Of a stretch of 64,000 nt of DNA, positions 18,223-56,358 are shown one piece after another. The notes beneath the pieces were generated by a model. That model searched no databases, was not told the DNA's origin, and saw only the letters and a list, made by a program, of their open reading frames with translations. The stretch is from a virus: the IMG/VR virus record IMGVR_UViG_3300036781_000418, positions 219,296 through 283,295 of that record. One strand, written 5' to 3'. Position 1 is the first letter of the stretch, and each line of letters opens with the position of its first letter. The translations under genes were made by a program, and so were the position numbers.

Positions 18223-18298
18223 CTGTCCGTAGCTCAATTGGATAGAGCCACGCCCTCCTAAGGCGTAGATCCCAGTTCGAATCTGGGCGGATGGACCA
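18223..18298 (+). tRNA. tRNA-Arg (CCT)
   Basis: acceptor ctgtccg/cggatgg, D-arm tagctcaattggatagagc, loop CTCCTAA, T-arm, CCA. Confidence 0.8.
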
Positions 18299-34346: not shown

Positions 34347-34421
34347 GGGAGTATGGCGTAGTCGGAAACGTACTTGGCTCTTACCCATGTGTCCACGGTT
34401 CGAATCCGTGTGCTCCCACCA
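34347..34421 (+). tRNA. tRNA-Lys (CTT)
   Basis: acceptor gggagta/tgctccc, loop CTCTTAC, T-loop TTCGAAT, CCA. Confidence 0.7.
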
Positions 34422-34429
34422 TCCAACAT

Positions 34430-34504
34430 GCCTCCGTCGTCTAGTGGCTAGGACATTGCACTTTCACTGCAAGAAAGACGGATCGAAACCGTTCGGAGGC
34501 ACCA
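34430..34504 (+). tRNA. tRNA-Glu (TTC)
   Basis: acceptor gcctccg/cggaggc, loop CTTTCAC, CCA. Confidence 0.75.
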
Positions 34505-34548
34505 ACACTAAGGACGATGAAAGTCGCCCTTCTAAGTAGAATGAGCGT

Positions 34549-34776
34549 ATGAAGCTTCCATCTACACACCAAATCGGCGACAACGTCAACTACACCCTCA
34601 AGCAAGAGGGACCTTGCCGCCTTATCGTACCAGCCATCGTACGACGTGTCATCTTTACTGAAAGCAAGGTGATTTACGACCTTACTACAAAAGATAACGT
34701 CGTTCAAGAAGTTGATTCAGTTTGGATCAGCTCAGCGGAGATGGAGCAAGACAGTTCCCCAGTAGCACAGTGGTAG
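34549..34776 (+). CDS. hypothetical protein (75 aa)
   Basis: ORF track; 3' end overlaps tRNA-Asn by ~20 nt. Confidence 0.4.
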   Translation: MKLPSTHQIGDNVNYTLKQEGPCRLIVPAIVRRVIFTESKVIYDLTTKDNVVQEVDSVWISSAEMEQDSSPVAQW

Positions 34777-34831
34777 TTGCGCCTGACTGTTAATCAGGAT
34801 GTCGGTGGTTCGAGCCCATCCTGGGGAGCCA
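34756..34831 (+). tRNA. tRNA-Asn (GTT)
   Basis: acceptor tccccag/ctgggga, loop CTGTTAA, CCA. Confidence 0.75.
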
Positions 34832-34842
34832 ACAAGATTTAT

Positions 34843-34918
34843 GGGTCCGTAGCTCAGTGGTAGAGCGTCTGCCTGAAGAGCAGAGCGTCGTCGGTTCGAA
34901 TCCGACCGTGACCCACCA
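34843..34918 (+). tRNA. tRNA-Phe (GAA)
   Basis: D-arm tagctcagtggtagagc, loop CTGAAGA, T-loop TTCGAAT, CCA; one bulge in acceptor. Confidence 0.65.
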
Positions 34919-34919
34919 T

Positions 34920-34995
34920 GTGTCTCAAGCCAATCAGGTGATGGCGTCGGTCTGAAGAACCGAACAGTCCGGTTCAATTCCGGAGGGACACACCA
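34920..34995 (+). tRNA. tRNA-Phe (GAA), second divergent copy
   Basis: acceptor gtgtctc/gggacac, loop CTGAAGA, T-loop TTCAATT, CCA. Confidence 0.65.
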
Positions 34996-35004
34996 ATCCA
35001 ACAT

Positions 35005-35078
35005 GGAGCGTTGATATATGGGTATTATGCTTGACTGTCTATCAGGCCAAACGGGTTCGAGTCCCGTACGCTCCGCCA
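35005..35078 (+). tRNA. tRNA-Asp (GTC)
   Basis: acceptor ggagcgt/acgctcc, loop CTGTCTA, CCA. Confidence 0.75.
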
Positions 35079-35087
35079 ACTTACAAT

Positions 35088-35179
35088 TCCCTTGTACTCT
35101 AATGGTAAGAGACCTGGCTGTTAACCAGACGTAGTCCGTCTAGAACGGTATGGAGGTTCGAGTCCTTCCGAGGGAGCCA
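35088..35179 (+). tRNA. class II (long-arm) tRNA with anticodon loop CTGTTAA (reads GTT; Tyr-like scaffold)
   Basis: 92 nt; acceptor tcccttg/cgaggga; variable-arm hairpin ccgt-ctaga-acgg; T-arm; CCA. Confidence 0.6.
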
Positions 35180-35183
35180 ACAT

Positions 35184-35258
35184 GGTGCTGAAGCTGAATG
35201 GTTACGCAGCGGTCTCATAAGCCGTGTGTCGTGGGTTCGATTCCCACCTGCACCACCA
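35184..35258 (+). tRNA. tRNA-Met/Ile (CAT)
   Basis: loop CTCATAA, T-arm gtggg-TTCGATT-cccac, CCA. Confidence 0.65.
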
Positions 35259-35369
35259 GCATTTTAGACGCGCAACATCCTTGAGAATAATGGGTTGCTC
35301 CACCAAGGTAGAGGCAGGGGTTGCATACAAAAGCGTTGAAGGAACGACCGATAGGCCTTCACCAACAGT

Positions 35370-35443
35370 TGGGGTGTAGTGTAATGGAAGCACAACAGGC
35401 TTTGACCCTGTTAGCGTGGGATCGATACCCGCCGCCCCTGCCA
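35370..35443 (+). tRNA. tRNA-Gln (TTG)
   Basis: stem acagg/cctgt, loop CTTTGAC, CCA. Confidence 0.7.
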
Positions 35444-35472
35444 GATAAATATGAGGATCAACGAAAGCATCA

Positions 35473-35931
35473 ATGAACCTCACAAAACTTACCCAACTCA
35501 ATGAGTCGACTGACGCTGACCTACTTTCCAAGCTGGACAATGTGTGTAAGCTCTCCATTCAGATGGAGTTGAAGCCGATTAAGTTCGCCAAGAACACCTC
35601 CAATGAGGACAAAGCCGAGGCCACAAAGCTCGCCATTGATCACTACAAGTCACGACTGGACAACTTTTGGTTTGATTCCAGGGCGCTTACGTCAGGCGTA
35701 AACGGCATCAAGGCCTACATGGAAGAATGCTCAAAGCATGGATTTAAGTACGACGCTGCGGCTTGTGAAAAGTTGATCGGAGAGATGACGCATGCGAAGT
35801 TAGTTGGCGACCTTGCTTCAACCATCACCACGCACATTGCCCTTGCCGCCCAAGGCCGTACGAACCGCACTTGGGATTCAGATCAGCAAACTGCGGCGAT
35901 CCTTCTGATGAAGGTCGTCGGTATCAAATAA
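35473..35931 (+). CDS. hypothetical acidic protein, member of the MK[LI]xx[LI]xE[ST] N-terminus family
   Basis: paralog of 38620-39063 (N- and C-termini align). Confidence 0.5.
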   Translation: MNLTKLTQLNESTDADLLSKLDNVCKLSIQMELKPIKFAKNTSNEDKAEATKLAIDHYKSRLDNFWFDSRALTSGVNGIKAYMEECSKHGFKYDAAACEKLIGEMTHAKLVGDLASTITTHIALAAQGRTNRTWDSDQQTAAILLMKVVGIK

Positions 35932-35936
35932 ACAAA

Positions 35937-36007
35937 CTCACCGCCAAAGGAATGGTCCGAACGCTACGAACGTTTGGCAGGAGGTTCGAGTCCTCTCGGT
36001 GGGTCCA
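35937..36007 (+). tRNA. tRNA-Arg (ACG)-like with reduced D-arm
   Basis: acceptor ctcaccg/cggtggg, anticodon stem gaacg/cgttt with loop CTACGAA, T-arm, CCA; only 71 nt. Confidence 0.45.
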
Positions 36008-36015
36008 CCAACAAT

Positions 36016-36090
36016 GGCGTTCGTAGTGTAATGGTAGCACCAGAGACTGTGAATCTTTTAGTGCGGGTTCGAACCCCGTCGATCGCCCCA
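36016..36090 (+). tRNA. tRNA-His (GTG) with encoded G-1
   Basis: extra 5' G pairing with discriminator C, loop CTGTGAA, CCA. Confidence 0.8.
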
Positions 36091-36096
36091 ATTAAC

Positions 36097-36170
36097 GCGT
36101 TCGTGGTGTAATGACTGCATAACCGGCCGAAAGCTGGCAGGGCCTGGGTAGAGACCAGGCGAACGCACCA
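36097..36170 (+). tRNA. tRNA-like element / degenerate tRNA-His duplicate
   Basis: identical acceptor gcgttcg/cgaacgc and CCA, similar D-arm; anticodon and T regions replaced by non-canonical hairpins. Confidence 0.35.
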
Positions 36171-36242
36171 AAATTGACAACCGCTTTGGTTGACGGTTAT
36201 CTCATTTCCAGAATCCCCCGTCACCTGTTCTTTGTTGTCTAT

Positions 36243-36317
36243 GGCTGCCTAGCTCAGTGGTAGAGCAATGTCTTGATAAGGCATAGGTCGTTGGTCCGAT
36301 TCCAACGGTAGCCACCA
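36243..36317 (+). tRNA. tRNA-Ile (GAT)
   Basis: D-arm tagctcagtggtagagc, loop TTGATAA, T-loop TCCGATT, CCA. Confidence 0.75.
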
Positions 36318-36321
36318 AATT

Positions 36322-36395
36322 GCCTCTGTAATTCAATGGCAGAATACCGTGCTGATAACGCGGCTACGCAGGTTCGATTCCTGACGGAGGCACCA
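36322..36395 (+). tRNA. tRNA with GAT anticodon (second Ile-like, divergent)
   Basis: acceptor gcctctg/cggaggc, stem ccgtg/cgcgg, loop CTGATAA, CCA. Confidence 0.65.
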
Positions 36396-36406
36396 GCTAA
36401 ATAGTC

Positions 36407-36676
36407 ATGTACTCAATGGAGATCTACATGGCTGATACGACCACAACCCCTGCAACTGACCTTTCCACCGCGGTTGACTCCGCCGCCGTTCAGGCGATCG
36501 TGGACAAGAAGTTCTGGCAGTCGAAGACTTTTTGGGCCAACGTCATTCTCGCTGGAGCGATCCTCTTGCAGATGAAGACAGGCTTCTTGATCAGCCCAGA
36601 CCTACAAGGTCTCGCGATCACTGGTATCAACCTCGTGCTGCGTAAGTTCACGAGCGGAGCCGTCACGCTCTGGTAA
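36407..36676 (+). CDS. small membrane protein (89 aa)
   Basis: ORF track; TAAATAG box 13 nt upstream. Confidence 0.45.
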   Translation: MYSMEIYMADTTTTPATDLSTAVDSAAVQAIVDKKFWQSKTFWANVILAGAILLQMKTGFLISPDLQGLAITGINLVLRKFTSGAVTLW

Positions 36677-36684
36677 CAAACTGA

Positions 36685-36758
36685 TGGGACGTGGTGTAGT
36701 GGTAACATGTGGGGATCTGACCCCCTCGCCCTAGGTTCGATTCCTAGCGTCCTTGCCA
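36685..36758 (+). tRNA. tRNA-Gln (CTG)
   Basis: stem gggg/cccc, loop ATCTGAC, T-arm ctagg-TTCGATT-cctag, CCA. Confidence 0.65.
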
Positions 36759-36834
36759 AACAATGGGACCAATTCGGTCACTTGATTTTCGTTCCTTAAG
36801 AACCGTAAGTCATCGTTATCGTCCCGCCAACAAT

Positions 36835-36907
36835 GGAGCCTAAGCCTGATTGGTGAGGGTGCAGTATGATTGCTGTTAAGATGGAGTTCGAATCTCTATG
36901 GGCTCCC
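36835..36907 (+). tRNA. tRNA-like gene with irregular (6- or 8-nt) anticodon loop, no encoded CCA
   Basis: acceptor ggagcct/gggctcc, T-loop TTCGAAT; anticodon region gcagtatgattgctgt cannot form a 5-bp stem with a 7-nt loop. Confidence 0.4.
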
Positions 36908-37374
36908 CTAATCTGAAAGTGACTCTTGAGCCGGCTGGTAAGCGTGGCTTGAAGTTTCTGATCTACGCGGTAGTTAACGGACGTAAGCGTGAAGTTGGAT
37001 ACCTCAACTCCGCCGTCACTCGGAACATCACGAAGCATGAAGTACTCGCGGCTCACGATGACTACAAGCTCGTCAAGCGCATCTTCAAGCAGGTTCCGGA
37101 CGAGTACACGTTCAACTACTACTGGCTGCAGAAGCTCTTCGTCTACGAGGAGTACAGTGGTCTTGGTATTGGTTCAGCGGCCCTGCAAGTTTGGTTTACC
37201 AAGCTGCGATCGATCGCGATGGTGGCCTTGGAAGCCTATCCAATTGGGTACCGAACGAAGGTGGAGCTTGAACGGTTCTACCTCAAGAACAACTTCGTCG
37301 TGTTTCATCGACTGCGTCCAGCAGGAGAGCGACAACGGCGAGCAACGATGGCCATGACGTTCGTCAAGGCCTAA
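36898..37374 (+). CDS. GNAT-family N-acetyltransferase
   Basis: motif VYEEYSGLGIGSAAL; start may be the downstream GTG at 36919. Confidence 0.5.
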   Translation: MGSPNLKVTLEPAGKRGLKFLIYAVVNGRKREVGYLNSAVTRNITKHEVLAAHDDYKLVKRIFKQVPDEYTFNYYWLQKLFVYEEYSGLGIGSAALQVWFTKLRSIAMVALEAYPIGYRTKVELERFYLKNNFVVFHRLRPAGERQRRATMAMTFVKA

Positions 37375-37381
37375 CGAATAT

Positions 37382-37457
37382 GGGTGATTGGTGTAGTTGG
37401 CAGCATAGCGGTCTCCAAAACCGTTGGTCATGGGTTCGAGTCCCTGGTCGCCCGCCA
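37382..37457 (+). tRNA. tRNA-Trp (CCA)
   Basis: acceptor gggtgat/gtcgccc, loop CTCCAAA, CCA. Confidence 0.8.
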
Positions 37458-37514
37458 TATAGCTTTGAGTAAGCTTGCTAAATAGGAAGCAACAATTCCA
37501 TTTAGGAGTCTCTC

Positions 37515-37751
37515 ATGGCACTTCGCAACGTAACGGGCCCAGCCCTGCACAGCTTCACGACTGACGAGCTTACCGCGATCGTCGGCAACTACGGCCCATC
37601 GGGCACCATTGACGACGGCGCAATCGCTCCTGGTGCAATGGTTTGGAACACGGATGAGTCCGCAGTTTGGGTCTTTGACGGCACGACGTTCAGCGCCGTA
37701 GCCGCCGCTCCAGCTCCAGCTCCTTCGCCTGCACCGGCTCCATCGCCGTAA
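37515..37751 (+). CDS. small protein (78 aa) with C-terminal (A/S)P repeat
   Basis: ORF track; TAAATAG box upstream; APAPAPSPAPAPSP tail. Confidence 0.45.
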   Translation: MALRNVTGPALHSFTTDELTAIVGNYGPSGTIDDGAIAPGAMVWNTDESAVWVFDGTTFSAVAAAPAPAPSPAPAPSP

Positions 37752-37774
37752 TTCAGTCGTAGGCTGAAAACAAA

Positions 37775-37807
37775 GAAGGGGAACCGAGTGATCGGTTCCC
37801 CTTACTT
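37775..37807 (+). terminator. rho-independent terminator
   Basis: ggggaaccga-gtga-tcggttcccc followed by T-rich run. Confidence 0.65.
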
Positions 37808-38086
37808 ACTTCGCGGTGACCCTTGGTGGTACCCTACTTTCTGGAGCAGCCAGGAAAGCGGAAAGGTCGGCTGAGGTTCCACACAACTGAAAGGAATCGT
37901 TTACCGGTGACCAAAGTTCCGGCAAAACACGACACCTCAGCTGGCCGTGTTCCTATTTGCTTCTCTAAGCAAGTACATTTTACGCAGCGACGTCTTCGGA
38001 TAACACTGCACATTTCAGGTTTAAGAAAGGATGCATCATGATGATCAGCTCGACGCTTGATGCGTCTGGTAAACACACCTCCTAAT

Positions 38087-38160
38087 GGGGGTGTAGCTCA
38101 AGGGTAGAGCAGGTGGCTTTTAACCACCCGGCGAGGGTTCGATCCCCTCCACCCCTACCA
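38087..38160 (+). tRNA. tRNA-Lys (TTT)
   Basis: stem ggtgg/ccacc, loop CTTTTAA, T-loop TTCGATC, CCA. Confidence 0.8.
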
Positions 38161-38194
38161 AATCACGTAAATAGCTGACCATATTGGAGTCCCC

Positions 38195-38623
38195 ATGAAG
38201 CTCAGCACCATTTCCGAACTCATCGCCATCAACGAAGCGGCGCTTAAGATCAGCGATACCGGTTGGTACGTAATCGATCCGACCGTGCACGACGGCGATA
38301 ACCCGCACTACAAGAAGGCCGCTGGCCCGTACAGGACGCGTGAAGAGGCGAAGGAGTACGCCACTGGCAAGGACCAAGTTAAGTTCGGTCACATGGTCAA
38401 CAACGGCTTCATTGAGGTCGATGAACATGGCACCTCGAACGAAGGCTACGTCGCCGTTTCACAGGCGCTGGTCTACGTGAAGAAGGCGATTGGCGCCCTT
38501 GCTGAAAGCGAGAACGAAGTGAAGGAGCACCTTGAGATGCTTGGCTTTGACATCTCCTTCGACAACCTGCTTCAACAGCTGAACGACCTTGAGGAACACC
38601 TTAAGGACGCGTCGACAAAATGA
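38195..38623 (+). CDS. hypothetical acidic protein, MKLxxIxE N-terminus family member
   Basis: N-terminus MKLSTISELIAINEA; TAAATAG box upstream. Confidence 0.5.
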   Translation: MKLSTISELIAINEAALKISDTGWYVIDPTVHDGDNPHYKKAAGPYRTREEAKEYATGKDQVKFGHMVNNGFIEVDEHGTSNEGYVAVSQALVYVKKAIGALAESENEVKEHLEMLGFDISFDNLLQQLNDLEEHLKDASTK

Positions 38624-39063
38624 AACTGATTCAGCTGAATGAAAACCTTGACGAGGCGAAAATTGACGCCTTCATCAAGGCCTACAACGGCATTGAAGCG
38701 CCACTCGCTAAGAAGCTCAAGCCGAAAGGATCGCCTGAGATGATCAAGGCGGCCTTTGACCTTGCATTTGATCATCATCAACGAGATGAAGTTCTGGACT
38801 TTGATGACGCGGCGATGACACGTGGCATCAAGGGCATCGAAGCCGCCCTCAACGCGGCCAAGGAGTACAAGACGTCAATTGACGTCGCCGCTTGCACCAA
38901 GGCCTCCATGGAGCTGAGTCAGCTCCGAAACTTTGGCAAGCTGGCCACTGACGTCGGCAACGCCATGTTCGTCGCTTTGCAGGGACTGAACAACGAACAT
39001 TGGTCTAAGGATGATCAAGCCCAAGCCCTACTCGCCTGTAAGTCGGTAGGCATCAGTAAATAA
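38620..39063 (+). CDS. hypothetical protein, MKLxxLxE family, paralog of 35473-35931
   Basis: N-terminus MKLIQLNENLD; ATGA overlap. Confidence 0.55.
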   Translation: MKLIQLNENLDEAKIDAFIKAYNGIEAPLAKKLKPKGSPEMIKAAFDLAFDHHQRDEVLDFDDAAMTRGIKGIEAALNAAKEYKTSIDVAACTKASMELSQLRNFGKLATDVGNAMFVALQGLNNEHWSKDDQAQALLACKSVGISK

Positions 39064-39064
39064 T

Positions 39065-39140
39065 GCATCGTTGACCTGAGAGGTTAAGGACCCTCCTTAC
39101 AAGTGGGAATATGCTGGTTCGAGTCCAGCACGATGCACCA
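39065..39140 (+). tRNA. tRNA-Val (TAC)
   Basis: acceptor gcatcgt/acgatgc, loop CTTACAA, T-loop TTCGAGT, CCA; one U-U mismatch in anticodon stem. Confidence 0.65.
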
Positions 39141-39147
39141 TATAATA

Positions 39148-39223
39148 GCTCTGGAAGTGTTACAAGGTGGCATGACAGTTTCGTAATCTGTAGGACGCGG
39201 TTCGAGGCCGCGCCGGAGCACCA
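39148..39223 (+). tRNA. tRNA-Thr (CGT)
   Basis: acceptor gctctgg/ccggagc, loop TTCGTAA with a U-U at the stem closing pair, T-arm cgcgg-TTCGAGG-ccgcg, CCA. Confidence 0.6.
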
Positions 39224-39284
39224 AAATTCCCGGGAGGACGCGCAAGCGTCCTCCTATTTTCGCATCAACAACTGGAGAAAATCC

Positions 39285-39671
39285 ATGAACGCCGACTTCC
39301 ATTCTCGCTTTATCACCAACACGGACGACACAGGCCGTTTCATCGTGAGCTCACAGCGGACGGGTATTCGGTACTACGTGGAACCGGTCGTGACGGAGCA
39401 CACCCCTGAGTGGGGCTCCATCGATCCAGCCACCGGCAACCTTACCCACAAGAAGGGTGACGGCAAGTACCGTGGCGGTGTCTCACCGTCTGAGTCCATC
39501 GTGAACGAGGATGCGGTCAAGGTTGGTGTCTTCGCGAAGGTGCACGACCTTGGACGAGGCGTGTCACCACACCAGGCGATTGACTACCTCGACGCACAGT
39601 ACCCAACCGTCAACCCAGCGTATGAGCTCACCGCTGAGTTTATCGGCTCCATCGTCAACCCAGCCTACTAA
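39285..39671 (+). CDS. hypothetical protein (128 aa)
   Basis: start at MNADFHS; the track's upstream extension overlaps tRNAs and is rejected. Confidence 0.5.
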   Translation: MNADFHSRFITNTDDTGRFIVSSQRTGIRYYVEPVVTEHTPEWGSIDPATGNLTHKKGDGKYRGGVSPSESIVNEDAVKVGVFAKVHDLGRGVSPHQAIDYLDAQYPTVNPAYELTAEFIGSIVNPAY

Positions 39672-39679
39672 GGATTATC

Positions 39680-39901
39680 ATGGCTACCCTCAAGGACCTC
39701 GTTGGTCCGGACAAGACCGTCCACTTTCAATTCTATCGTAAGGGTGCGCTCTACTATCGCACGTCAGACAACTTTGAATTCTTGGTGCCGATTGAGGACT
39801 GTGGTGACGCGGAATTTTTGGCAATGGACAAGGCTATGATGTTCATGCGGTACATTCGCAAACAGCTAGCCGTCAACGCTGAAGGCAGGGAGGCTGTATG
39901 A
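39680..39901 (+). CDS. hypothetical protein (73 aa)
   Basis: ORF track. Confidence 0.45.
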   Translation: MATLKDLVGPDKTVHFQFYRKGALYYRTSDNFEFLVPIEDCGDAEFLAMDKAMMFMRYIRKQLAVNAEGREAV

Positions 39902-40077
39902 ACGCCAAGAAGCTGGAAAAGAAGAAGCTCAAGCTCGCCGAGCGGATCAAGCAGCTGGAGGATGGGCTCGTCCTCTCCCTCCAGAAGAAGTCCTCCTCAG
40001 CAACCGAGATCGACATGCCTGGCACGATGCGCCAGATCCGAGAGCTGAAGGAAGAGCTGGACGAGCTAAATAGCTAA
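39898..40077 (+). CDS. small coiled-coil protein (59 aa)
   Basis: ATGA overlap; Lys/Glu/Leu heptads; below track cutoff. Confidence 0.35.
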   Translation: MNAKKLEKKKLKLAERIKQLEDGLVLSLQKKSSSATEIDMPGTMRQIRELKEELDELNS

Positions 40078-40080
40078 CCA

Positions 40081-40155
40081 ACAATTTACGCTGTCATAGT
40101 GCTAGTGGAAACACACGTCTTTGGTAAGGACGGATCGAAGGTTCGATTCCTTCTG
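40081..40155 (+). tRNA. tRNA-Thr (GGT)
   Basis: acceptor gctgtca/tggcagc, loop TTGGTAA, CCA. Confidence 0.8.
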
Positions 40156-40159
40156 GCAG

Positions 40160-40504
40160 CACCACTCTATGTTCGTCACCATCCATGAACTGCTGAACGC
40201 AATCCAAGTGAACGAGTCTCGCTACTCGGACATGGTGGAGCAATGGTGCTCAACGAACCTTGAGTCCTTTAAGACCGCCACGGACGCCTACCTTGCGCTT
40301 CGCAAGTACGTGGACGAGACGAGCGTCTTGAAGAACTACCTCACGGCCACCTTTAAGGGCAGTGAGGTCCGAATTCAGAGGTACCTCATCGACATCCTTT
40401 CACAGATGGCCAAGGAGAAGAACCTCAGCGGCTACGGTGAGGTTGACCTAACACAGGCCAACTACAACCACAGCGCGTCAGGAAGCGCGTCAGCTTCCAT
40501 GTAA
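40160..40504 (+). CDS. hypothetical protein (114 aa)
   Basis: start at MFVTIHE just after the tRNA. Confidence 0.5.
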   Translation, partial: HHSMFVTIHELLNAIQVNESRYSDMVEQWCSTNLESFKTATDAYLALRKYVDETSVLKNYLTATFKGSEVRIQRYLIDILSQMAKEKNLSGYGEVDLTQANYNHSASGSASASM

Positions 40505-48933: not shown

Positions 48934-48949
48934 TCCTGCACCAGGAAAT

Positions 48950-49015
48950 ATGTTACACAGTCCTGGGGCCGTTACACCTTCGGATATGTACATTTCGTCA
49001 GACAGGTCTATAATT
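48950..49015 (+). promoter_or_regulatory. promoter module copy A: GTTACA-N13-GTTACA, TGTACA, N16, TATAAT
   Basis: same architecture and spacing as copies at 51262 and 55931; 68 nt before ATG 49083. Confidence 0.5.
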
Positions 49016-49082
49016 CGCTCAACGCCACAGAACGTGTGCGCCGGAACCGAGCCACCTCTCGGATACTTGCTGAGGAAAACGA

Positions 49083-49679
49083 ATGAACACAGCTCAAAGC
49101 GCCGGCAGCACCGGCGGAACTCCTTCGACGGCCACGAATCCGGCTGACACCTCCACCACGACCTCCACGGAACCCGGCACCACCACGGTGAATCCGGCTA
49201 CGACGCCAGCTGGTACGCCGGACAACACCACCCCGCCGGCCCCGAAGGCCACGGTCAAGGTGAAGGCCGCCGCCAAGTCGACCAAGGTCAAGGCTGACGG
49301 CAAGAAGGAAGCTCCGAAGAAGGAGGCCAAGCCGAAGGCTGAGCCCAAGGCCAAACCCGTCAAAGAAGCCAAGCCGCCGAAGGAGCCCAAGGCTCCGCGC
49401 GTTCCGACCGAGCGCAAGCCGGCCAAGGACGCCATGGCCCTCCGCACGCGCTTCTCCTTCGGTGACGCGTTCCTCCGCGTCGCTGAAGAAGGCAAGCACC
49501 ACGACATGGGCAAGCTGGCCGCGTTCGGCGCTGCCTGCGGCCTGGGTACCTTCGAGGAACTCTCGAAGCGTGAGCACCAAAACCTGAGCGACGCGATCAT
49601 GGGCCACATCAAGCTCGGCGACCGCAAAGACTTCCCGAAGAACTTCAAGCTCGACGAAGGCAAGATCGCCGGTATCTGA
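49083..49679 (+). CDS. histone-H1-like AKP/KPK-repeat protein with C-terminal 'SFG...HHD..KL(S/A)AF' domain
   Basis: T/P-rich N-terminus, Lys/Ala/Pro repeats, C-terminal domain paralogous to 51378 and 56071 gene products. Confidence 0.6.
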   Translation: MNTAQSAGSTGGTPSTATNPADTSTTTSTEPGTTTVNPATTPAGTPDNTTPPAPKATVKVKAAAKSTKVKADGKKEAPKKEAKPKAEPKAKPVKEAKPPKEPKAPRVPTERKPAKDAMALRTRFSFGDAFLRVAEEGKHHDMGKLAAFGAACGLGTFEELSKREHQNLSDAIMGHIKLGDRKDFPKNFKLDEGKIAGI

Positions 49680-49696
49680 TCGGCCACGCCATCCAC

Positions 49697-49726
49697 AAGG
49701 GGACCGTAAGGTCCCCTTTCCGTTTT
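49697..49726 (+). terminator. rho-independent terminator
   Basis: ggggacc-gtaa-ggtcccc followed by TTTCCGTTTT. Confidence 0.65.
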
Positions 49727-49737
49727 CAGGAGAACTC

Positions 49738-50118
49738 ATGAAGCCTCTGTTCCCATTTGACCTGTCCACATACGACTGCGACATGCTGCTCAGCGACAAC
49801 CCTGAGCACGCCGAGGCCTTCCGAAAGCTCACGGTATATCGCACCGTTAACCGTCATGAAGTCACCGCCACGGTCACCGAGGACGCAAAGGTCAAGATCA
49901 ACGCGTGGGCGTCCAGCGACAGCGGCTTCATGCAGCAGGCCGGTACGTACTGGACGAAGATCATTCAGCTGTCTCAACTCCAGGTCCGGCAATACGTCAT
50001 GAAGGAGGTGCAGCGCCGGGCGATTGAGGAGATTATGGAGGAGGATCGCCAGGAACAGCTTCAACGGGTGGCCGCCAGAGCCAAGTCGATCGCTGCTAAG
50101 CTTGGTGTGTCGAAGTAG
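49738..50118 (+). CDS. hypothetical protein (126 aa)
   Basis: ORF track. Confidence 0.5.
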   Translation: MKPLFPFDLSTYDCDMLLSDNPEHAEAFRKLTVYRTVNRHEVTATVTEDAKVKINAWASSDSGFMQQAGTYWTKIIQLSQLQVRQYVMKEVQRRAIEEIMEEDRQEQLQRVAARAKSIAAKLGVSK

Positions 50119-50137
50119 TACCGACCCGGCGACACGA

Positions 50138-50166
50138 GGGAGGCTGAGGGCCTCCCTTCTTCGTTT
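50138..50166 (+). terminator. rho-independent terminator followed by a TAAATAG box
   Basis: gggaggc-tgagg-gcctccc then TTCTTCGTTT then gTAAATAG. Confidence 0.6.
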
Positions 50167-50197
50167 GTAAATAGTGCATTCACTTGAGCTCCTACGA

Positions 50198-51259
50198 ATG
50201 CGCCTGACCACCCTACTAGAGTCCCGAAAGGTCCGTGACTACCGTCATCCTCACGCTAACATGGCACGAGAAAAGTACTTCGGAGATGACAAGGGTCCGG
50301 AGTACATCGACCCGAAGGACGGCTTTCACTTTGAGACGAACTCCTACGGCGAGCTTGTCCTGTCAAGCACGAACAACCACAACTACTCCGCCATCGTGTC
50401 CATGGATCCGGAGGAGGTGGCCAAGCTGCGCAAGCCAGGTCAAGGTCAAGGTCTACCTCGCGCCCTTGCGGATCGAATCAAGCAGGGCGGCAACGAGACG
50501 TGGAACGAGTTCGGCGGCAAGGTCACCTACGCCGACAAGACGATTCGCTGCACCATCCAGCACATCCACAACAACAGGAAGCGGACCCGCATCGCCGAGG
50601 ACATTCACGTAATCAAGACCGCGTTGTCGCAGCTGAAAAAGTACGGCGTCACCGACGACTTCAAGCTGACTGCGATTCAAAGCCCGTTCAAGAATATGAC
50701 GGTGGGTGAAGTGCTCGGTATGCCGGACAGCAACTTCGTCTACAACATGGCCAACGCCACCACGGCCGCCATGCGCAAGCACATCAAGAACGTCAACAAG
50801 AACGGCAAATCTCGAGTTGTTAAGGACATGGACTCCTTCACCGAGCTGGCGAACAAGACGGACCTTGATTGGCCTGATCGCTACTGGCACGCGCAGGACA
50901 TCACCACCAACTCCTACTGGTTTGGCGGCAAGATGGAGTCGCTCCACGGAGACGAGGACGGTGAAATTCTGTCGCTGAAGGACCACGCCAAGCTCTTCTC
51001 CAAGCTCCTGCTCCGCCACATCGCGAAGCTGCAGGACGAAGGCATCGACGTGGTGTTCCCACCGGACGGCACGCGTCGCATGCAGCAGGCCATGCACCCA
51101 GACTGGGTATCACTTACGGGTGAGGATCTGAAGGAGCGCAAGACGGAGAAGCTTGAGCAGATGAAGGAGGACATGACGAAGTTCTTCAACGGAATCGAGG
51201 ACGATGCCAAGAAGATCGAGCTGAACCTGCTCTTGACCTACTTGGGGATCACGATCTAG
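50198..51259 (+). CDS. hypothetical protein (~353 aa); start uncertain
   Basis: ORF track (GTG at 50174) or the ATG at 50198. Confidence 0.5.
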   Translation: MRLTTLLESRKVRDYRHPHANMAREKYFGDDKGPEYIDPKDGFHFETNSYGELVLSSTNNHNYSAIVSMDPEEVAKLRKPGQGQGLPRALADRIKQGGNETWNEFGGKVTYADKTIRCTIQHIHNNRKRTRIAEDIHVIKTALSQLKKYGVTDDFKLTAIQSPFKNMTVGEVLGMPDSNFVYNMANATTAAMRKHIKNVNKNGKSRVVKDMDSFTELANKTDLDWPDRYWHAQDITTNSYWFGGKMESLHGDEDGEILSLKDHAKLFSKLLLRHIAKLQDEGIDVVFPPDGTRRMQQAMHPDWVSLTGEDLKERKTEKLEQMKEDMTKFFNGIEDDAKKIELNLLLTYLGITI

Positions 51260-51261
51260 AA

Positions 51262-51324
51262 CGTTACAACTTCGGGATAACGTTACACTTTAGCAGTGTA
51301 CAAATCCCCAGGTCATGCTAGAAT
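51262..51324 (+). promoter_or_regulatory. promoter module copy B: GTTACA-N13-GTTACA, TGTACA, N16, TAGAAT, then conserved leader
   Basis: leader tcaactcatgcaaacaagcaat shared with copy C. Confidence 0.5.
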
Positions 51325-51377
51325 TCAACTCATGCAAACAAGCAATCCCGCTAGTTGCAGAACCTGGAGAATACATC

Positions 51378-51692
51378 ATGACCTCGACTTCCAAGACCGC
51401 ACGAACCGCCGCTACCCGTGACCTGGCCGCCCATCGCATCGCGATGAACAGCCGCGGTCGCATGTCCTTCGGCCGCACGTTCCTCGACACCCTCAAGGCT
51501 GGCAACTCCCACCACGACGCCGCCAAGCTGTCCGCCTTCTTGGTCGCCAACGGCGCCGAGACCGCGAAGTCCATCAAGGCGAAAGCCAAGTCCGGCGAGC
51601 TGACGCTGGAATCCTTGAGCAAGGCCGCTACGACCCTGATCAAGAAGACACCGGAAGACCAACTGGTGATGAAGTTCAACCTGAACGACTAA
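51378..51692 (+). CDS. small 'SFG...HHD' family protein (104 aa)
   Basis: AAHRIAMNSRGRMSFGRTFL...HHDAAKLSAF; paralog of 56071-56358. Confidence 0.55.
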   Translation: MTSTSKTARTAATRDLAAHRIAMNSRGRMSFGRTFLDTLKAGNSHHDAAKLSAFLVANGAETAKSIKAKAKSGELTLESLSKAATTLIKKTPEDQLVMKFNLND

Positions 51693-51745
51693 ACCTCAGC
51701 CACCTACGCCCACATCGCTGGGCGTAGGACCTTTCTGGAGACATC

Positions 51746-51952
51746 ATGACTGTGACGAATGTCCTCCGCGAGTTGCTTGCCGTTCGCGAGTTACGCGCCG
51801 AGTATATGCGCCAAAAGCAGCGACGCGCTGTGAAGTTCCGCCGCGACCTTGCCCAAGTTGCTGAGGCTGATCGTCTGAAAGCCGAGCTGGACGTTCGAGA
51901 GCCGGCCGCCTGGAAGATGGCCGAGGACGTCCTTCGAATCCAAGGAGATTAA
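51746..51952 (+). CDS. hypothetical protein (68 aa)
   Basis: ORF track. Confidence 0.45.
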   Translation: MTVTNVLRELLAVRELRAEYMRQKQRRAVKFRRDLAQVAEADRLKAELDVREPAAWKMAEDVLRIQGD

Positions 51953-51953
51953 C

Positions 51954-52133
51954 ATGATCAACCATGACTACGACGCAGTCAGCCTTCAAGCTGACGTTTG
52001 GAAGGCCGTGGCTCGCAGTCAGCTGCAACGTCCGGACTTTAACAGCCGTGGCGCAGCCATTGCGTTCGCCAAGGCGGTGTTCGAGGGTAAGCGTAAGGCC
52101 GAACCGGCCGTTGAGGAGATCAAGCATGACTGA
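51954..52133 (+). CDS. small protein (59 aa)
   Basis: below track cutoff; overlaps next start. Confidence 0.3.
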   Translation: MINHDYDAVSLQADVWKAVARSQLQRPDFNSRGAAIAFAKAVFEGKRKAEPAVEEIKHD

Positions 52134-52812
52134 AGACCGCATCATCGACAAGATCAAGAAGTGCCTGGAGCTGGCCAAGGACGATCGTGCTAACCCATCC
52201 GAGGCCGCCAACGCCCTGCGTCAGGCCCAAGCCCTGATGAAGAAGCACAACGTCACCTTGGGTCACATCGACCGGTCGGCCATCGGCACGGTGAACGTCA
52301 CGGCCTGCAGTGTCTCGCGCCCGAAGCGCTGGGAGCTGGACCTGATGCACCTGATGGGTCGTGCCTTTGGCTGTAAGGTCACCTGGATCTCGGGTCGGTC
52401 TGGTACGCGCTTCGGTCGGTTTAACCTGATCGGCGTGAAGTCTCAGCTGGAGATCGCCCACTACACGGCCGAGGTCATGCAGCGGAAGCTCTACAAGGCC
52501 CGCGCCAACTACGTGTCCACGTTGCCGCTCTGGATGACACGCGGTGAGAAGACCCAGGCGGCCGACGGTTTCTGCATCGGTTGGGTCGAGGCAGTCCAGA
52601 AGACGGTCCACGACTTTGAGCAGGACGGCAAGGTTAAACTGTTGCTCGAGACGATCGTCAAGGAAGCAACTGGTGATCGTCAGGCGAACATCCATGATCG
52701 TGAAGTGGCGGACGAGGACATGATGGCGGGCTACCGTGTCGGCAAGACCGAGTCGATCCACCGCCCCATGAAGGACCGTGACCCCCAACTTCAGATTGGA
52801 CACGACTCATGA
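52126..52812 (+). CDS. hypothetical protein with DUF2786-like N-terminus
   Basis: IIDKIKKCLELAKDDRANPSEAANALRQAQALMKKH pattern; remainder unknown. Confidence 0.45.
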   Translation: MTEDRIIDKIKKCLELAKDDRANPSEAANALRQAQALMKKHNVTLGHIDRSAIGTVNVTACSVSRPKRWELDLMHLMGRAFGCKVTWISGRSGTRFGRFNLIGVKSQLEIAHYTAEVMQRKLYKARANYVSTLPLWMTRGEKTQAADGFCIGWVEAVQKTVHDFEQDGKVKLLLETIVKEATGDRQANIHDREVADEDMMAGYRVGKTESIHRPMKDRDPQLQIGHDS

Positions 52813-52991
52813 AGAACATTCCCAACATCACGTACCTGATGCGCTGCATCCGGTGTGATCACGAGCAGAAGGTAACCTCAGCCGCGGCCCATGAGGACGA
52901 CAAGGGCGAGCAGAGCTTCTACTTTGGTTCTCGATACGACTTCTGTGACCTGTGCGACGGTCACATGGTCGTCATCAAGCAGCTCGATTAA
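52809..52991 (+). CDS. small zinc-ribbon protein (60 aa)
   Basis: CIRCDHE...CDLCDGH. Confidence 0.45.
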   Translation: MKNIPNITYLMRCIRCDHEQKVTSAAAHEDDKGEQSFYFGSRYDFCDLCDGHMVVIKQLD

Positions 52992-53010
52992 CCACCTCGA
53001 AACCACCGAC

Positions 53011-53037
53011 AGGGCCTTAGGGCCCTTTGTTCGTTTC
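53011..53037 (+). terminator. rho-independent terminator followed by a TAAATAG box
   Basis: agggcc-ttag-ggccct then TTGTTCGTTTC then ttaaatag. Confidence 0.6.
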
Positions 53038-53068
53038 TTAAATAGAGGATCACAATGTGGATCCTCGA

Positions 53069-53548
53069 ATGAAGCTTGCCACCCTCCATGAAAGCGGCAC
53101 CCTAGATACCAAGGACGTCTCGACGCTCGTCCAGTTCCTGACTGATGTATGCGAAAATCATAAGTTCAGTCACTGGCAGCCGTTTCTCGGTTTGGTAAAG
53201 GACTATGGGCACTACGACGCCGCGTCAGTTGAGGCCATGTACATGGGAATGTACATGGACGGCACTATTGGAATAGGAAGCCTAGATCAGGTTGTCAAGA
53301 ATCTAAATCAGCTGAACAATGAGTTTACTCGGAACCTTGACCACGTGATGGGCAAGGAAGCCAAGGAGCTTATCAGCCGAGGCATGATCAACCGCTTCGA
53401 TCAACTAGGTGAGACAATAAAGCTTGCCAACGCCTTTCACACCCTGATTCAGTGGGCTGACGACGACAAAGATGAATTTGATTCAGACGAACGGGCAATC
53501 TACGACAAGCTAATCACGCACCTTGAAAACAAGGCCCAGACGGTCTAA
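53069..53548 (+). CDS. acidic helical protein, MKLATLxES family member 1
   Basis: start at MKLATLHESG (track start 53057 is upstream in frame). Confidence 0.5.
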   Translation: MKLATLHESGTLDTKDVSTLVQFLTDVCENHKFSHWQPFLGLVKDYGHYDAASVEAMYMGMYMDGTIGIGSLDQVVKNLNQLNNEFTRNLDHVMGKEAKELISRGMINRFDQLGETIKLANAFHTLIQWADDDKDEFDSDERAIYDKLITHLENKAQTV

Positions 53549-53572
53549 ATACCAGATCACACGGATTCCCAA

Positions 53573-54052
53573 ATGAAGCTAGCAACCCTACGAGAAAGCC
53601 TAACTGGCAAGGCCCTCATCGATCACATCGAGCTCGCCGCGACCGAGGTCTTCGGCGAGGAGAACTCCCAGTGGGCGCCAGGCATCAACACCAAAGTAGA
53701 GGTCCTTGAACAAGGTCTCAAGTGGGCCGTTCACGAATGGAACGATTCAGGTGGTCACCATGATTTTGGATTTAGCCTTAACAGTCGAGCTGTCAAGCTT
53801 GGCCAGGCCGCCTCTTCTCTGCAGCTAAGCCCTGCACCGAATCCGGCTAAGCTTGAGGTGCTTGAGGAATTTGACCGAAAGGTCAATGAACTTGTCGATG
53901 TTTACTCTCAGCTGGATGCAGTTTCCACCGCCGCCGAGATGTTCTTCGACATCGTTCATGACATGAACCAGGTCATCGAAGATGACGAGGATAAGTACAA
54001 AACAAAGGTCGCGATGAACACCATGAAGCTCATGGGCGCGGAGGTCTTCTAA
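53573..54052 (+). CDS. acidic helical protein, MKLATLxES family member 2
   Basis: N-terminus MKLATLRESLTGK. Confidence 0.55.
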   Translation: MKLATLRESLTGKALIDHIELAATEVFGEENSQWAPGINTKVEVLEQGLKWAVHEWNDSGGHHDFGFSLNSRAVKLGQAASSLQLSPAPNPAKLEVLEEFDRKVNELVDVYSQLDAVSTAAEMFFDIVHDMNQVIEDDEDKYKTKVAMNTMKLMGAEVF

Positions 54053-54831
54053 TGAACCTAGAACAACTACTCGAAGGCGACGACGCAACCGAGAGCACAC
54101 CAGTCGCGCTCTTCAAAGAACTACGTGCGCTCGTTGCGAAGTTTGAGGCGCCACTTACCGTCGCTGCGCGAAAAACTAGAACCGGAACGGTCATCGTGTT
54201 TAAGCCGTCGAATAAGTCAGACGCCAACAATATCCTGTCGAACGAAGACCTGATCATGCTGTTCAGCAAACAGCTCAAGAAGGTCTTGGCTGAGAAGATC
54301 CACGCTGGTCAGAAGTTCGTGCTCTTTCAGCTCCAACTCTCCGACGCGCAGGCAGCCCATTGGTTCAAGCAGTTCAACAAGGAAGACACACTTGACGAGC
54401 TGGACGCCTTCACAAAGGACGGCCGACTACCAAAGATCTACGTTCAGCGTGGGGCGGACGACCTTGGTGAAATGACGATCGACTTGACGATTGGGTATAA
54501 GACGCCTAGCGCGAAACGAGCCAAGAGCTTTCAAACCAGTTTTAGCTTTTCAGCGCCCACCGACACGATCAACGCCATCGTCAAGATCGCCAACCGCGAT
54601 GGACGCTATCTCCAACTACATTATCCATCCGTGGTGTTCAACGAGCTGGTCAAGTTGCTGGTGTCACTTGGCGCGCCAATCGACAAGGTCATCACCGACC
54701 TTGATCAACAGTTTCCTAGCGCGAGCATGCACGTGATCGCGTACCAGTCGCTTAAGCGAGCTCGCAACGTCCCTGGACCAAGGATTGGAGAGCTGATGTT
54801 GAAGCTCGCCAACGAATCGACTAAGGCCTAA
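54052..54831 (+). CDS. hypothetical protein (259 aa), N-terminus MNLEQLLEG
   Basis: ORF track; ATGA overlap. Confidence 0.5.
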   Translation: MNLEQLLEGDDATESTPVALFKELRALVAKFEAPLTVAARKTRTGTVIVFKPSNKSDANNILSNEDLIMLFSKQLKKVLAEKIHAGQKFVLFQLQLSDAQAAHWFKQFNKEDTLDELDAFTKDGRLPKIYVQRGADDLGEMTIDLTIGYKTPSAKRAKSFQTSFSFSAPTDTINAIVKIANRDGRYLQLHYPSVVFNELVKLLVSLGAPIDKVITDLDQQFPSASMHVIAYQSLKRARNVPGPRIGELMLKLANESTKA

Positions 54832-54832
54832 C

Positions 54833-55357
54833 GTGAAACTTTCAAACCTTACCGAGTCAAGTGGTGGCAAGCCAATGGTTGATTCGCTAGTAAAGCTTGC
54901 CAATGAGGTGCACAGCACGACCAACGCGCAACGAGTGAGAAGCGCAATGGACGGCTTGTCAGACGAAAGCGTACAGCACGCCCTTGAACAAGCCGTCAAG
55001 CTGTCGCAGAAGTACGGCTCAGACGGTGCCTACAACTTGTTCTCAAATCCACTTGACAACTACGACAAAATTAGGTTGGACATCGACAAGCTTCATGTGG
55101 GAAGTGAGGATTCTCACGGTGACAGGGTGCAGGTGCTTGATCCAAAGCTGCTGGTTAAGTTGAAGGCCGTCTCAGAGAGCTTCATCTCCGTAATTGAGGA
55201 GCTGCACGATGGGGCGAACCTCATCAAACAGCTCCTTAAGCTGTTTGACTTCTTTGAGCACTATCATCGAAACATCGAAACGCGTGATCATGAAGATGCG
55301 GACGTTCACAAGGCGTTGATCAAGGCCATTTTTAAAAAGCTAGGATTGGATCTATGA
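54833..55357 (+). CDS. acidic helical protein, family member 3 (GTG start)
   Basis: N-terminus (M)KLSNLTESSGGK. Confidence 0.5.
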   Translation: MKLSNLTESSGGKPMVDSLVKLANEVHSTTNAQRVRSAMDGLSDESVQHALEQAVKLSQKYGSDGAYNLFSNPLDNYDKIRLDIDKLHVGSEDSHGDRVQVLDPKLLVKLKAVSESFISVIEELHDGANLIKQLLKLFDFFEHYHRNIETRDHEDADVHKALIKAIFKKLGLDL

Positions 55358-55421
55358 AGAAGGGTTTCCTATTTGAAGCTGGTCCGGTGTCGGCGAAGAA
55401 GTTTGGATTGGAGTTTACGGA

Positions 55422-55928
55422 ATGAAGATCGCGCAGATCAACGAAACGGTTACCCCTGAACGTGCACTTGAAGTGCTGATCAAGGTTCTCAACGAGATCA
55501 TCAATGATAAATCCACGCCACAACCTATGTCCAGTAACCGCTTGGACAAGATGAGCAAGCTATCGCATTCAGCGCAGGAGTGGGGGGCGGCCGCGGCGGT
55601 GGAAAGTTGGAACAAAAACGGCGGCGTCATGCCGTCCATCAACCTTGTCGACGTTAAGCAATTTCACCGGCCGCTAGGCCAGTTGGAAGACGCAAAGTTT
55701 CACGGTTGGCTTGGGCCCAAGCACGGTGAAGAGGCGATAAAGCAGATGCAGGCAATTATAGCAGAATACAGTGAACTGTCTGAAAGACTACAGGCGTTTG
55801 AACTCGCCACAAGCATACTGGCGATCCTTCAAGGTGAAGCTGATGATTCCCGCTCCAACAAGTACACAATCAGTCTAGCCAAAGGCGCCTTCCGTGCGCT
55901 AAATCTAAAGGTGAACGGCACAAGCTAA
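55422..55928 (+). CDS. acidic helical protein, family member 4
   Basis: N-terminus MKIAQINETVTPE. Confidence 0.5.
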   Translation: MKIAQINETVTPERALEVLIKVLNEIINDKSTPQPMSSNRLDKMSKLSHSAQEWGAAAAVESWNKNGGVMPSINLVDVKQFHRPLGQLEDAKFHGWLGPKHGEEAIKQMQAIIAEYSELSERLQAFELATSILAILQGEADDSRSNKYTISLAKGAFRALNLKVNGTS

Positions 55929-55930
55929 TC

Positions 55931-55993
55931 CGTTACAGTTCCCTGGACTTGTTACACTCTAATGATGTACAAGTCCTGGATTGGGTATAGAAT
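55931..55993 (+). promoter_or_regulatory. promoter module copy C: GTTACA-N12-GTTACA, TGTACA, N16, TAGAAT, then conserved leader
   Basis: leader tcaactcatgcaatcaagcaat. Confidence 0.5.
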
Positions 55994-56070
55994 TCAACTC
56001 ATGCAATCAAGCAATAAATCAAAAGCTTGAAAGCAAGTTGAACCCTTACCAAACTTTCTAGGAGCCTACC

Positions 56071-56358
56071 ATGTCGAAGCAAGCCAACCAAATCGCCGCC
56101 CACCGTGTTGCCATGAACGGCCGTGGTCGTATGTCCTTCGGTCGTACCTTCCTCGCCACGCTGCGTGAAGGTAAGAACCACCACGACGCCGGCAAGCTGT
56201 CCGCCTTCATCGTCGCCGCTGGTGTCGCCACGGCCAAGCAGCTGAAGTCGCTCGCTGCCAAGGGCCAGGTTACCCTGGAAACGCTGAACGACGTCGCTCA
56301 TGGCATCGTTACCCTGCTGCCCGCCGATCAACTGCCGGTCCGCACGAACCTGCAATGA
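56071..56358 (+). CDS. small 'SFG...HHD' family protein (95 aa)
   Basis: AAHRVAMNGRGRMSFGRTFL...HHDAGKLSAF. Confidence 0.55.
   Translation: MSKQANQIAAHRVAMNGRGRMSFGRTFLATLREGKNHHDAGKLSAFIVAAGVATAKQLKSLAAKGQVTLETLNDVAHGIVTLLPADQLPVRTNLQ

Follow-up and report, generated by a model that had tools for sequence, protein, structure and literature searches.

The early 'uber' promoters of phage T4 combine an UP element, a -35 hexamer, a TGn extension and a -10 hexamer and are read by the unmodified host sigma-70 RNA polymerase, whereas in its middle promoters a phage box takes the position of the -35 beside a sigma-70 -10 hexamer (PMC2988021). For uncultured jumbo phages, hardly anything is known about promoters. 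Here, an 85-base-pair (bp) class of promoter-like modules is defined from 46 instances in 318 kilobases (kb) of related phage loci. Three of its copies, modules A, B and C, lie in a stretch of 64,000 nucleotides (nt) from IMG/VR virus record IMGVR_UViG_3300036781_000418 (positions 219,296 to 283,295; the whole stretch is called the window), a segment of an uncultured jumbo phage genome of about 342.6 kb, and each heads one gene (likewise A, B and C) of a paralogous protein family. What is new here is the set of upstream boxes of a phage early-type promoter and their coupling to an unannotated protein family.

Like the T4 early promoters, the modules have a sigma-70-type -10, a -35-like hexamer at canonical spacing and conserved positions both upstream and around the start, and many copies head short units of small orphan genes. 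Unlike them, they carry two discrete GT(T/A)ACA boxes and no A/T-rich UP element (-40 to -60; 55% A+T here), and their -35 reads TGTACA rather than GTTTAC or TTGACA. With the T4 middle (MotA/AsiA) promoters and the pho-box promoters of PhoB they share a good sigma-70 -10, a conserved non-canonical box at -35, related boxes upstream and rigid spacing to the -10. However, a MotA box, (a/t)(a/t)TGCTT(t/c)a with its centre at -30, is absent, all copies reading (G/A)TGTACA(A) at that place, and the periods of 19 and 15-16 bp differ from the 11-bp direct repeats of pho boxes. No MotA or AsiA homologue was seen among the proteins scanned from the window and the relative fragments, a scan that was not exhaustive.

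In the window, the arrangement GTTACA-N13-GTTACA(C)-N8/9-TGTACA-N16-TA(T/G)AAT occurs exactly three times against about 0.01 expected, once upstream of each of the genes starting at 49083, 51378 and 56071, as a sequence-only reading of the stretch had proposed. The paired boxes (GTTACA-N{11,16}-GTTACA) match at 48952, 51263 and 55932, always on the plus strand and always with N13 (shuffle mean 0.01); the boxes are thus 19 nt apart from start to start in all three copies, which corrects the 18-19 nt given earlier. The core (TGTACA-N{15,18}-TANAAT; 0.03 expected) matches only at the same three sites (48987, 51297 and 55966), and the 16-nt spacer described before was found in each. Since the lone GTTACA hexamer is not enriched (15 found, 19.8 expected), the signal resides in the arrangement of the boxes. 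Scans with one mismatch per box and an nhmmer profile search returned no further full copy in the window. In a generic promoter scan the cores of A, B and C score 9-10 out of 12 against the sigma-70 hexamers, in agreement with the promoter-like character first ascribed to them. Their -10 hexamers (TATAAT, TAGAAT and TAGAAT) hold the A at position 2 and the T at position 6 typical of sigma-70, and TGTACA matches TTGACA at four of six positions and lies within the 16-18 nt of the -10 expected of a sigma-70 -35; an extended -10 TGn is found within the window in module B only.

The link between module and family extends well beyond the window. Contigs were fetched for eight family relatives, and in every one that retains upstream sequence a family gene stands directly behind a module, both in loci of close relatives (L001, L003 with A-type and B-type genes, L006 with an A-type gene and a tandem pair, L008 and L201) and in those of remote members at 25-30% identity (L202, L203 and L204). 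Among 15 family genes in phage loci, 13 are first after a module, one is second in a tandem pair behind a module and one sits at a contig edge without upstream sequence. All 14 evaluable genes are thus in module-headed units, and the prediction that the repeats would be kept at other copies of the family holds. Seen from the promoter side, 13 of the 15 modules in these protein-fetched loci, which are unbiased for promoters, drive family genes. This perfect association across deep divergence is notable. Inheritance of entire cassettes, under selection for strong early expression, would account for it just as well as autoregulation by the family.

Moreover, the modules form a promoter class of their own. 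Public collections were scanned for the composite pattern, and the true relatives amount to 40 distinct strict instances and, with the class profile (nhmmer, E of 0.01 or better), 46 matches in the related phage loci. As many as 33 of the 46 precede genes outside the family, mostly small open reading frames (ORFs) that have a short leader and a strong ribosome-binding site, and for that reason the private regulon of the paralogs proposed at the outset is too narrow a description. Many of the module-bearing contigs have several homologous genes in common with the family-bearing loci and therefore belong to the same broad clade. Across the class the flanking and intervening sequence has diverged and the boxes are kept. 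Some contigs hold three to six modules within a few kb; L049 (7426-11969) and L127 (2514-4920) carry four to six, with a very small ORF behind each, and resemble the dense early-promoter regions of T4-like phages. In L202 and L203, modules lie directly 3' of tRNA-like 3' ends.

The class consensus reads cGT(T/A)ACA-N11-15-cGTTACAC(TTTAG)-N-(G/A)TGTACA(a)-N16-17-TA(t/g)AAT-nCAnC(T)AT(C/G)GAC. Of the 40 strict instances, 36 could be parsed. In these, box 2 keeps a rigid distance of 9-10 nt from the -35 box, which in turn lies a rigid 16-17 nt from the -10; the spacing of boxes 1 and 2 is looser (11-15 nt, mode 13). The -10 is most often TAGAAT (11), TATAAT (9), TATAGT (4) or TACAAT (4), with others besides, the outline TA...T being built into the search pattern. 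A canonical TGn at -15 to -13 occurs in 13 of the 36, and many others have TG right beside the -10. In several relatives box 1 is GTAAC(G/A), GTAAC being the reverse complement of GTTAC, with the 19-nt register unchanged. Taking the start as about 7 nt downstream of the -10 hexamer, box 2 lies at about -49 to -38 and box 1 at about -68 to -62. With 55% A+T, no A-tracts and a longest A/T run of about 3.8 nt, the stretch between about -70 and -36 does not qualify as a classical UP element. The start region is also conserved, so that conservation spans about 85 bp. Some variants lose TGTACA and retain both boxes and the -10, which makes the boxes the hallmark of the class.

An origin of the upstream half as a tandem pseudo-promoter, boxes 1 and 2 being an internal copy of the -35 and -10, was rejected (identity 3.6 of 13, against 3.3 after shuffling). 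Also rejected were the pattern matches in bacterial metagenome-assembled genomes and most of those in metagenomes, which are mostly low-GC coding repeats with a 69-bp period, unrelated to the promoter; true class relatives among the matches are higher in GC and intergenic. The coding repeats (L018, L144, L148 and many others) are apparently 23-residue leucine-rich-repeat-like units of surface proteins from Clostridia, with further coding matches in Treponema. Such repeats are a trap for promoter searches that rely on a pattern alone.

As for the family itself, the claim that its three window members share a domain above chance is upheld by BLASTP (A-C E=2e-11, A-B E=6e-8, B-C E=1e-36). In a collection of 5.8 billion sequences, a profile of the three domains found no more than 11 close clusters, none of them named, and a wider profile brought the family to about 50 clusters in total. 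It has no match in Pfam, PHROG, PDB or BFVD, and no Pfam or PHROG family recurs across 21 members. Residues R18, F23, G24, D39 and K42 are invariant. The HHD of the originally described motif is kept among close relatives, and only its D persists in remote members; a catalytic or metal site there was rejected on that ground. The AlphaFold2 model of protein C, from a 12-sequence alignment, has five helices and a two-stranded sheet (predicted local distance difference test score 81, predicted template modelling score 0.72). The family shows no helix-turn-helix, ribbon-helix-helix or other recognisable sequence-specific DNA-binding fold, and its structural matches to SAP/Rho-N-like domains are weak. 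The window paralogs are all basic, with isoelectric points (pI) of 9.8-11.0.

Protein A adds a two-part extension to the domain, an acidic T/P/G-rich segment (residues 1-54, pI 4.1) and a K/A/P-rich segment with AKP/KPK repeats and a net charge of +14 (residues 55-118). Its description as histone-H1-like is correct for composition, the T/P-rich segment being followed by the AKP/KPK repeats, but does not extend to a linker-histone globular domain, for which Pfam gave no match at E up to 1 apart from one of low complexity. The order of T/G/P-rich segment, K/A/P-rich segment and domain is kept in the A-type orthologs, namely L003 5173-5793, P0013 (identical to L006 7694-8506) and P0061, the last with long KTAKTAPKTAK repeats. 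The PAKKA repeats of mycobacterial Ku and HupB are likewise lysine/alanine/proline-rich, H1-like tails (PMC3553676), and the low-complexity basic AKP/KPK/KTAK repeats of A and these orthologs also lie beside a folded domain. Unlike those tails, that of A is N-terminal to an orphan domain and has the acidic segment before it; the similarity is compositional, not homologous. The K/A/P-rich tail of the A-type proteins suggests nucleic-acid binding by the family. One further candidate, P0021 (1157 residues, seven matched stretches), was rejected as a false positive that looks like a repetitive adhesin-type protein. Family gene calls sometimes begin inside the promoter, as at the ATG of caTGCTAGAAT at window position 51315 ('MLEFNSCK...'); the L203 call (10001) starts within the -35 box, and P0009 and P0061 are similarly affected. 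Database sequences of the family consequently carry spurious N-terminal extensions.

The reading favoured here, with about an even chance of being correct, is that of a clade-specific class of sigma-70-type promoters with two accessory boxes heading early small-gene cassettes, of which the family, probably an abundant nucleic-acid-binding early protein, is the most constant client. On this reading, the host sigma-70-type RNA polymerase would read the modules, and the two upstream boxes would be extra recruitment sites for it, binding either the flexibly tethered C-terminal domains of its alpha subunits (alpha-CTDs) or a small accessory activator. The extra recruitment would make the modules the strongest host-polymerase promoters of the phage, active at the start of infection, with most other units of the window read later from a -10-only motif, TAAATAG. 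The orphan family would bind nucleic acid and be produced early in large amounts. Judged from the sequence, the module promoters are probably used at the very start of infection. The sigma-70 hexamer scores would speak for the host polymerase, as would the report that the jumbo phage RsoM2USA, the nearest cultured relative by RNA ligase, encodes no RNA polymerase (PMC8504454). Several observations weigh against this reading. Exact GTTACA and TGTACA were required of the seed promoters, which partly builds in the invariance of these hexamers. The two positions at which the -35-like box departs from TTGACA are shared by nearly all copies, and its resemblance to the upstream boxes would equally suit a dedicated factor acting in place of sigma region 4. 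At 55% A+T and with a longest run of about 4 nt, the sequence upstream is unlike the known UP elements bound by alpha-CTDs, and canonical TGn is present in just 13 of 36 copies.

Such a dedicated factor is at the heart of a different explanation, possible but rather unlikely, in which the modules are activator-dependent promoters of the middle type, switched on after the early proteins, with a phage factor on three similar hexamers replacing or assisting sigma region 4. The likeness of GTTACA, GTTACA and TGTACA, the combination of an excellent -10 with a -35 whose departure from the canonical hexamer is common to nearly all copies, and the variants that keep the boxes better than the -35 box all accord with it. 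The fixed distance of 9-10 nt between box 2 and the -35 box would suit a protein-protein contact with the polymerase, and the logic is that of the T4 middle promoters, in which a phage box stands for the -35 (PMC2988021). However, no candidate activator was found and a MotA box is missing; with periods of 19 and 15-16 bp the sites do not share one helix face, TGTACA still has four of six positions of TTGACA at canonical spacing, and the downstream genes are mostly small orphans, typical of immediate-early sets. A phage-encoded sigma factor or RNA polymerase, with the sequence from about -70 to +10 as its recognition site, is less probable still and, on balance, quite unlikely. The unusual length of the conservation (about 85 bp, start region included) and a clade-specific consensus not found in cultured phages would favour it, but the -10 varies in a sigma-70-like manner (TAGAAT, TATAAT, TATAGT, TACAAT and others) at 16-17 nt from a -35-like hexamer, and TAAATAG already fits the expected class of a phage sigma, gp55-like. 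RsoM2USA is reported to have no RNA polymerase genes (PMC8504454), and the loci examined showed neither a polymerase nor a sigma gene, in a search that was not exhaustive.

The close tie between module and family raises the idea, doubtful as matters stand, of an autoregulatory regulon in which the family proteins bind the GT(T/A)ACA boxes and feed back on their own and on other promoters of the class. All 14 evaluable family genes are module-headed across very divergent members, 13 of 15 modules in the protein-fetched loci drive family genes, and the proteins are basic, some with a lysine-rich tail, and have weak SAP/Rho-N-like structural matches. Abundant early proteins that shut early promoters off are exemplified by TF1 of SPO1 and p6 of phi29. 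Phage histone-like regulators of early promoters are known, p6 being one (PMC3100819, PMC10899789). A recognisable sequence-specific DNA-binding fold is missing from the family, though, and 33 of 46 modules drive unrelated genes; duplication of whole cassettes with selection for strong early expression could account for the association, the boxes hardly vary and so leave no covariation to exploit, and H1-like tails confer non-specific affinity rather than specificity. In its fullest form, also improbable, the family would be a chromatin-like box-recogniser of new fold, made first and in bulk, that coats or bridges the boxes of the class and times an early shut-off or boost, the A-type proteins adding non-specific condensation. 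The view that the boxes are functionless passenger repeats of a thrice-duplicated cassette is effectively refuted. B and C clearly are one duplicated cassette, with a leader in common and proteins 56% identical, but boxes with constrained spacing are kept in 46 promoters before unrelated genes on many contigs while the surrounding bases diverge, and also before family members just 25-30% identical.

The features of the modules, their cassettes and the related motifs are compiled in the table.

Table. Coordinates in the window of the promoter modules, the family genes and related elements
Feature	Coordinates	Strand	Basis and details
Promoter module A	48944-49031	+	Exact pattern matches; nhmmer with class profile, E=3.5e-14
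Module A, boxes and -35	48952-48957; 48971-48977; 48987-48992	+	Box 1 GTTACA; box 2 GTTACAC; -35-like TGTACA
Module A, downstream half	49009-49014	+	16-nt spacer; -10 TATAAT (coordinates); start region tcgctcAACGCC
Gene A	49083-49679	+	ORF list; 198 residues; family domain at residues ~115-198
Intrinsic terminator after gene A	49697-49718	+	Terminator scan; 9-bp stem, then TCCGTTTTCA
Promoter module B	51257-51342	+	Exact matches; nhmmer E=2e-18, top match in the window
Module B, boxes and -35	51263-51268; 51282-51288; 51297-51302	+	Box 1 GTTACA; box 2 GTTACAC(TTTAG); -35-like TGTACA
Module B, downstream half	51319-51324	+	16-nt spacer ending in TGc (extended -10); -10 TAGAAT (coordinates)
Module B, conserved start/leader	51325-51346	+	TCAACTCATGCAAACAAGCAAT
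Gene B	51378-51692	+	ORF list; 104 residues, pI 10.2; family domain only
Hairpin after gene B	51703-51728	+	Read from sequence; CCTACGCCCA-catcgc-TGGGCGTAGG; weak T tract
Promoter module C	55924-56011	+	Exact matches; nhmmer E=2.3e-16
Module C, boxes and -35	55932-55937; 55951-55957; 55966-55971	+	Box 1 GTTACA; box 2 GTTACAC; -35-like TGTACA
Module C, downstream half	55988-55993; 55994-56015	+	16-nt spacer; -10 TAGAAT; start/leader TCAACTCATGCAATCAAGCAAT
Gene C	56071-56358	+	ORF list; 95 residues, pI 11.0; family domain only
Core-only class relative	33886-33925	+	TAGCACA-N16-TACAAT, then acacCTATCGAC; nhmmer E=0.012, profile positions 50-86 only
Two GTTACAC boxes in opposite orientation, 29 nt apart	13173-13208	-	nhmmer partial matches, E 0.6-1.1
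TAAATAG, first group	1698, 7240, 9810, 20407, 26614, 32648, 33590	+	
TAAATAG, second group	33849, 36398, 37479, 38168, 40067, 50168, 53039	+	
TAAATAG, minus-strand copy	19402-19396	-	

A gap of 3-19 nt separates each of the three modules from the stop codon of the gene before it, and within each compact cassette the module is followed by a small gene with a short leader and a strong ribosome-binding site. The strong terminator behind gene A makes it a single-gene cassette. Gene B has the Shine-Dalgarno sequence GGAG 8 nt upstream of its start, and its in-frame ATG at 51315 falls inside the promoter and is not the start; the hairpin that follows the gene was not called by the terminator scan and may be a partial terminator. 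Gene C is followed by overlapping small genes, and its protein is identical to database cluster P0001, from a single metagenomic contig of 342,591 bp. B and C derive from one duplicated cassette, since promoter, leader and gene are all in common. Their common 22-nt leader, pointed out in the sequence-only reading, is indeed identical at 21 of 22 positions, though it is partly a general trait of the promoter class. Promoters orthologous to module A precede A-type genes in L003 (5036-5122) and L006 (7550-7634), and the ortholog of module B in L003 (7320-7406) is nearly identical to it.

A possible 5'-proximal hairpin (UGC..UCAAGC-loop-GCUUGA..GCA) follows the leader of module C, and leader and hairpin are kept in L006 and L001. 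The folding energies of the leaders are no better than those of shuffled sequences (z -0.0 to -1.9; module C hairpin, -0.9 to -1.9). A known RNA element in the leaders was rejected, Rfam at its gathering threshold giving only 28 tRNAs in the window.

The wider layout is syntenic with L003, where gene A, a 126-residue gene, a 332-residue gene, gene B, a short block of small ORFs and a DUF2786/DUF7168 gene follow one another. This last gene (PHROG 421) follows a family gene in each locus, at 52126-52812 (plus strand) in the window, 8268-8978 in L003 and 10324-10989 in L006, a few small ORFs past the B-type gene in the first two and directly after the tandem pair in L006. Between B and C, in a lower-GC stretch (about 0.51), stand four adjacent plus-strand genes of about 160-175 residues (53069-53548, 53573-54052, 54833-55357 and 55422-55928), which begin MKLATL, MKLATL, MKLSNL and MKIAQI. 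They resemble one another weakly, at about 20% overall, one pair reaching E=5e-5 over its N-terminal 33 residues, and may be a second, fast-diverging paralog array between the two cassettes.

Two further sites in the window recall parts of the module. The core-only relative has the class-typical start region without the GTTACA boxes. Upstream of a plus-strand gene at 13311-14144 and of a weak sigma-70-like core (TAGAAT, 13245-13250) lie the two GTTACAC boxes in opposite orientation, of which that at 13208-13202 reads GTTACACTTTAAT on the minus strand, like an extended box 2. Whatever reads the boxes may have a fourth target here, though membership of the pair in the system is uncertain. That gene encodes a secreted protein of 277 residues that has a signal peptide and, at its C-terminus, a PEP-CTERM sorting motif (Pfam PF07589; 25.2 bits, cutoff 20.7), and its presence on a phage implies a host with an exosortase system.

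The window also contains a second promoter-like motif, TAAATAG, with 15 copies against 1.3 expected, 14 of them in gene sense. It often comes right after an intrinsic terminator, often with G/C before it and without a -35, and precedes most units of the window, the tRNA arrays included. TAAATAG resembles the late promoters of T4-type phages (TATAAATA). Its sequence and placement make it a likely second class of promoter, one that would depend on a phage factor and drive most units of the window. Together the two motifs suggest a programme in which a few host-type module promoters would act early and many TAAATAG promoters would be read with the phage factor.

As to the phage itself, the window carries tail-fibre genes on the minus strand (58.9-64 kb) and encodes an RNA ligase, a CCA-adding/poly(A)-polymerase-like enzyme and an RNase T-like exonuclease, together with 28 tRNA genes in arrays (810-3802, 18223-18295 and 34347-40161; Rfam, gathering threshold). 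The RNA ligase is nearest to jumbo-phage versions, those of Ralstonia phage RsoM2USA (62%), the Caulobacter CcrSC group and Salicola phage SCTP-2. Megablast gave no DNA-level match of the region to a cultured phage, tblastn of protein C, P0015 and P0016 against phages gave none, and blastn did not find the promoter consensus in cultured phages. The syntenic 41 kb of RsoM2USA has neither module nor family gene, and a literature search on GTTACA phage promoters found nothing relevant.

If they bind nucleic acid and are made early in bulk, the family proteins would be comparable in function to MotB of T4 (PMC6070864), p6 of phi29 (PMC10899789, PMC3100819) and TF1 of SPO1. They recall these three in being small, basic and associated with early-type promoters, but resemble none of them in sequence or fold. 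The presence of several paralogs, together with the cassette layout, suggests a high dosage of the family proteins, and by analogy a role in organising or silencing DNA during takeover would be plausible.

Overall, the module class and the TAAATAG class amount to a first-draft temporal programme of this phage group, drawn from sequence alone. The modules could serve as compact, strong promoter parts for synthetic biology in proteobacteria. More broadly, the class marks the cassettes of what are likely the first proteins of infection, among them an unannotated family of about 50 clusters, some with H1-like tails. If the boxes recruit polymerase, they would constitute an unusual upstream element or the site of an unknown factor; if the family itself reads them, it would provide a self-contained early-gene timer across a clade of uncultured jumbo phages.

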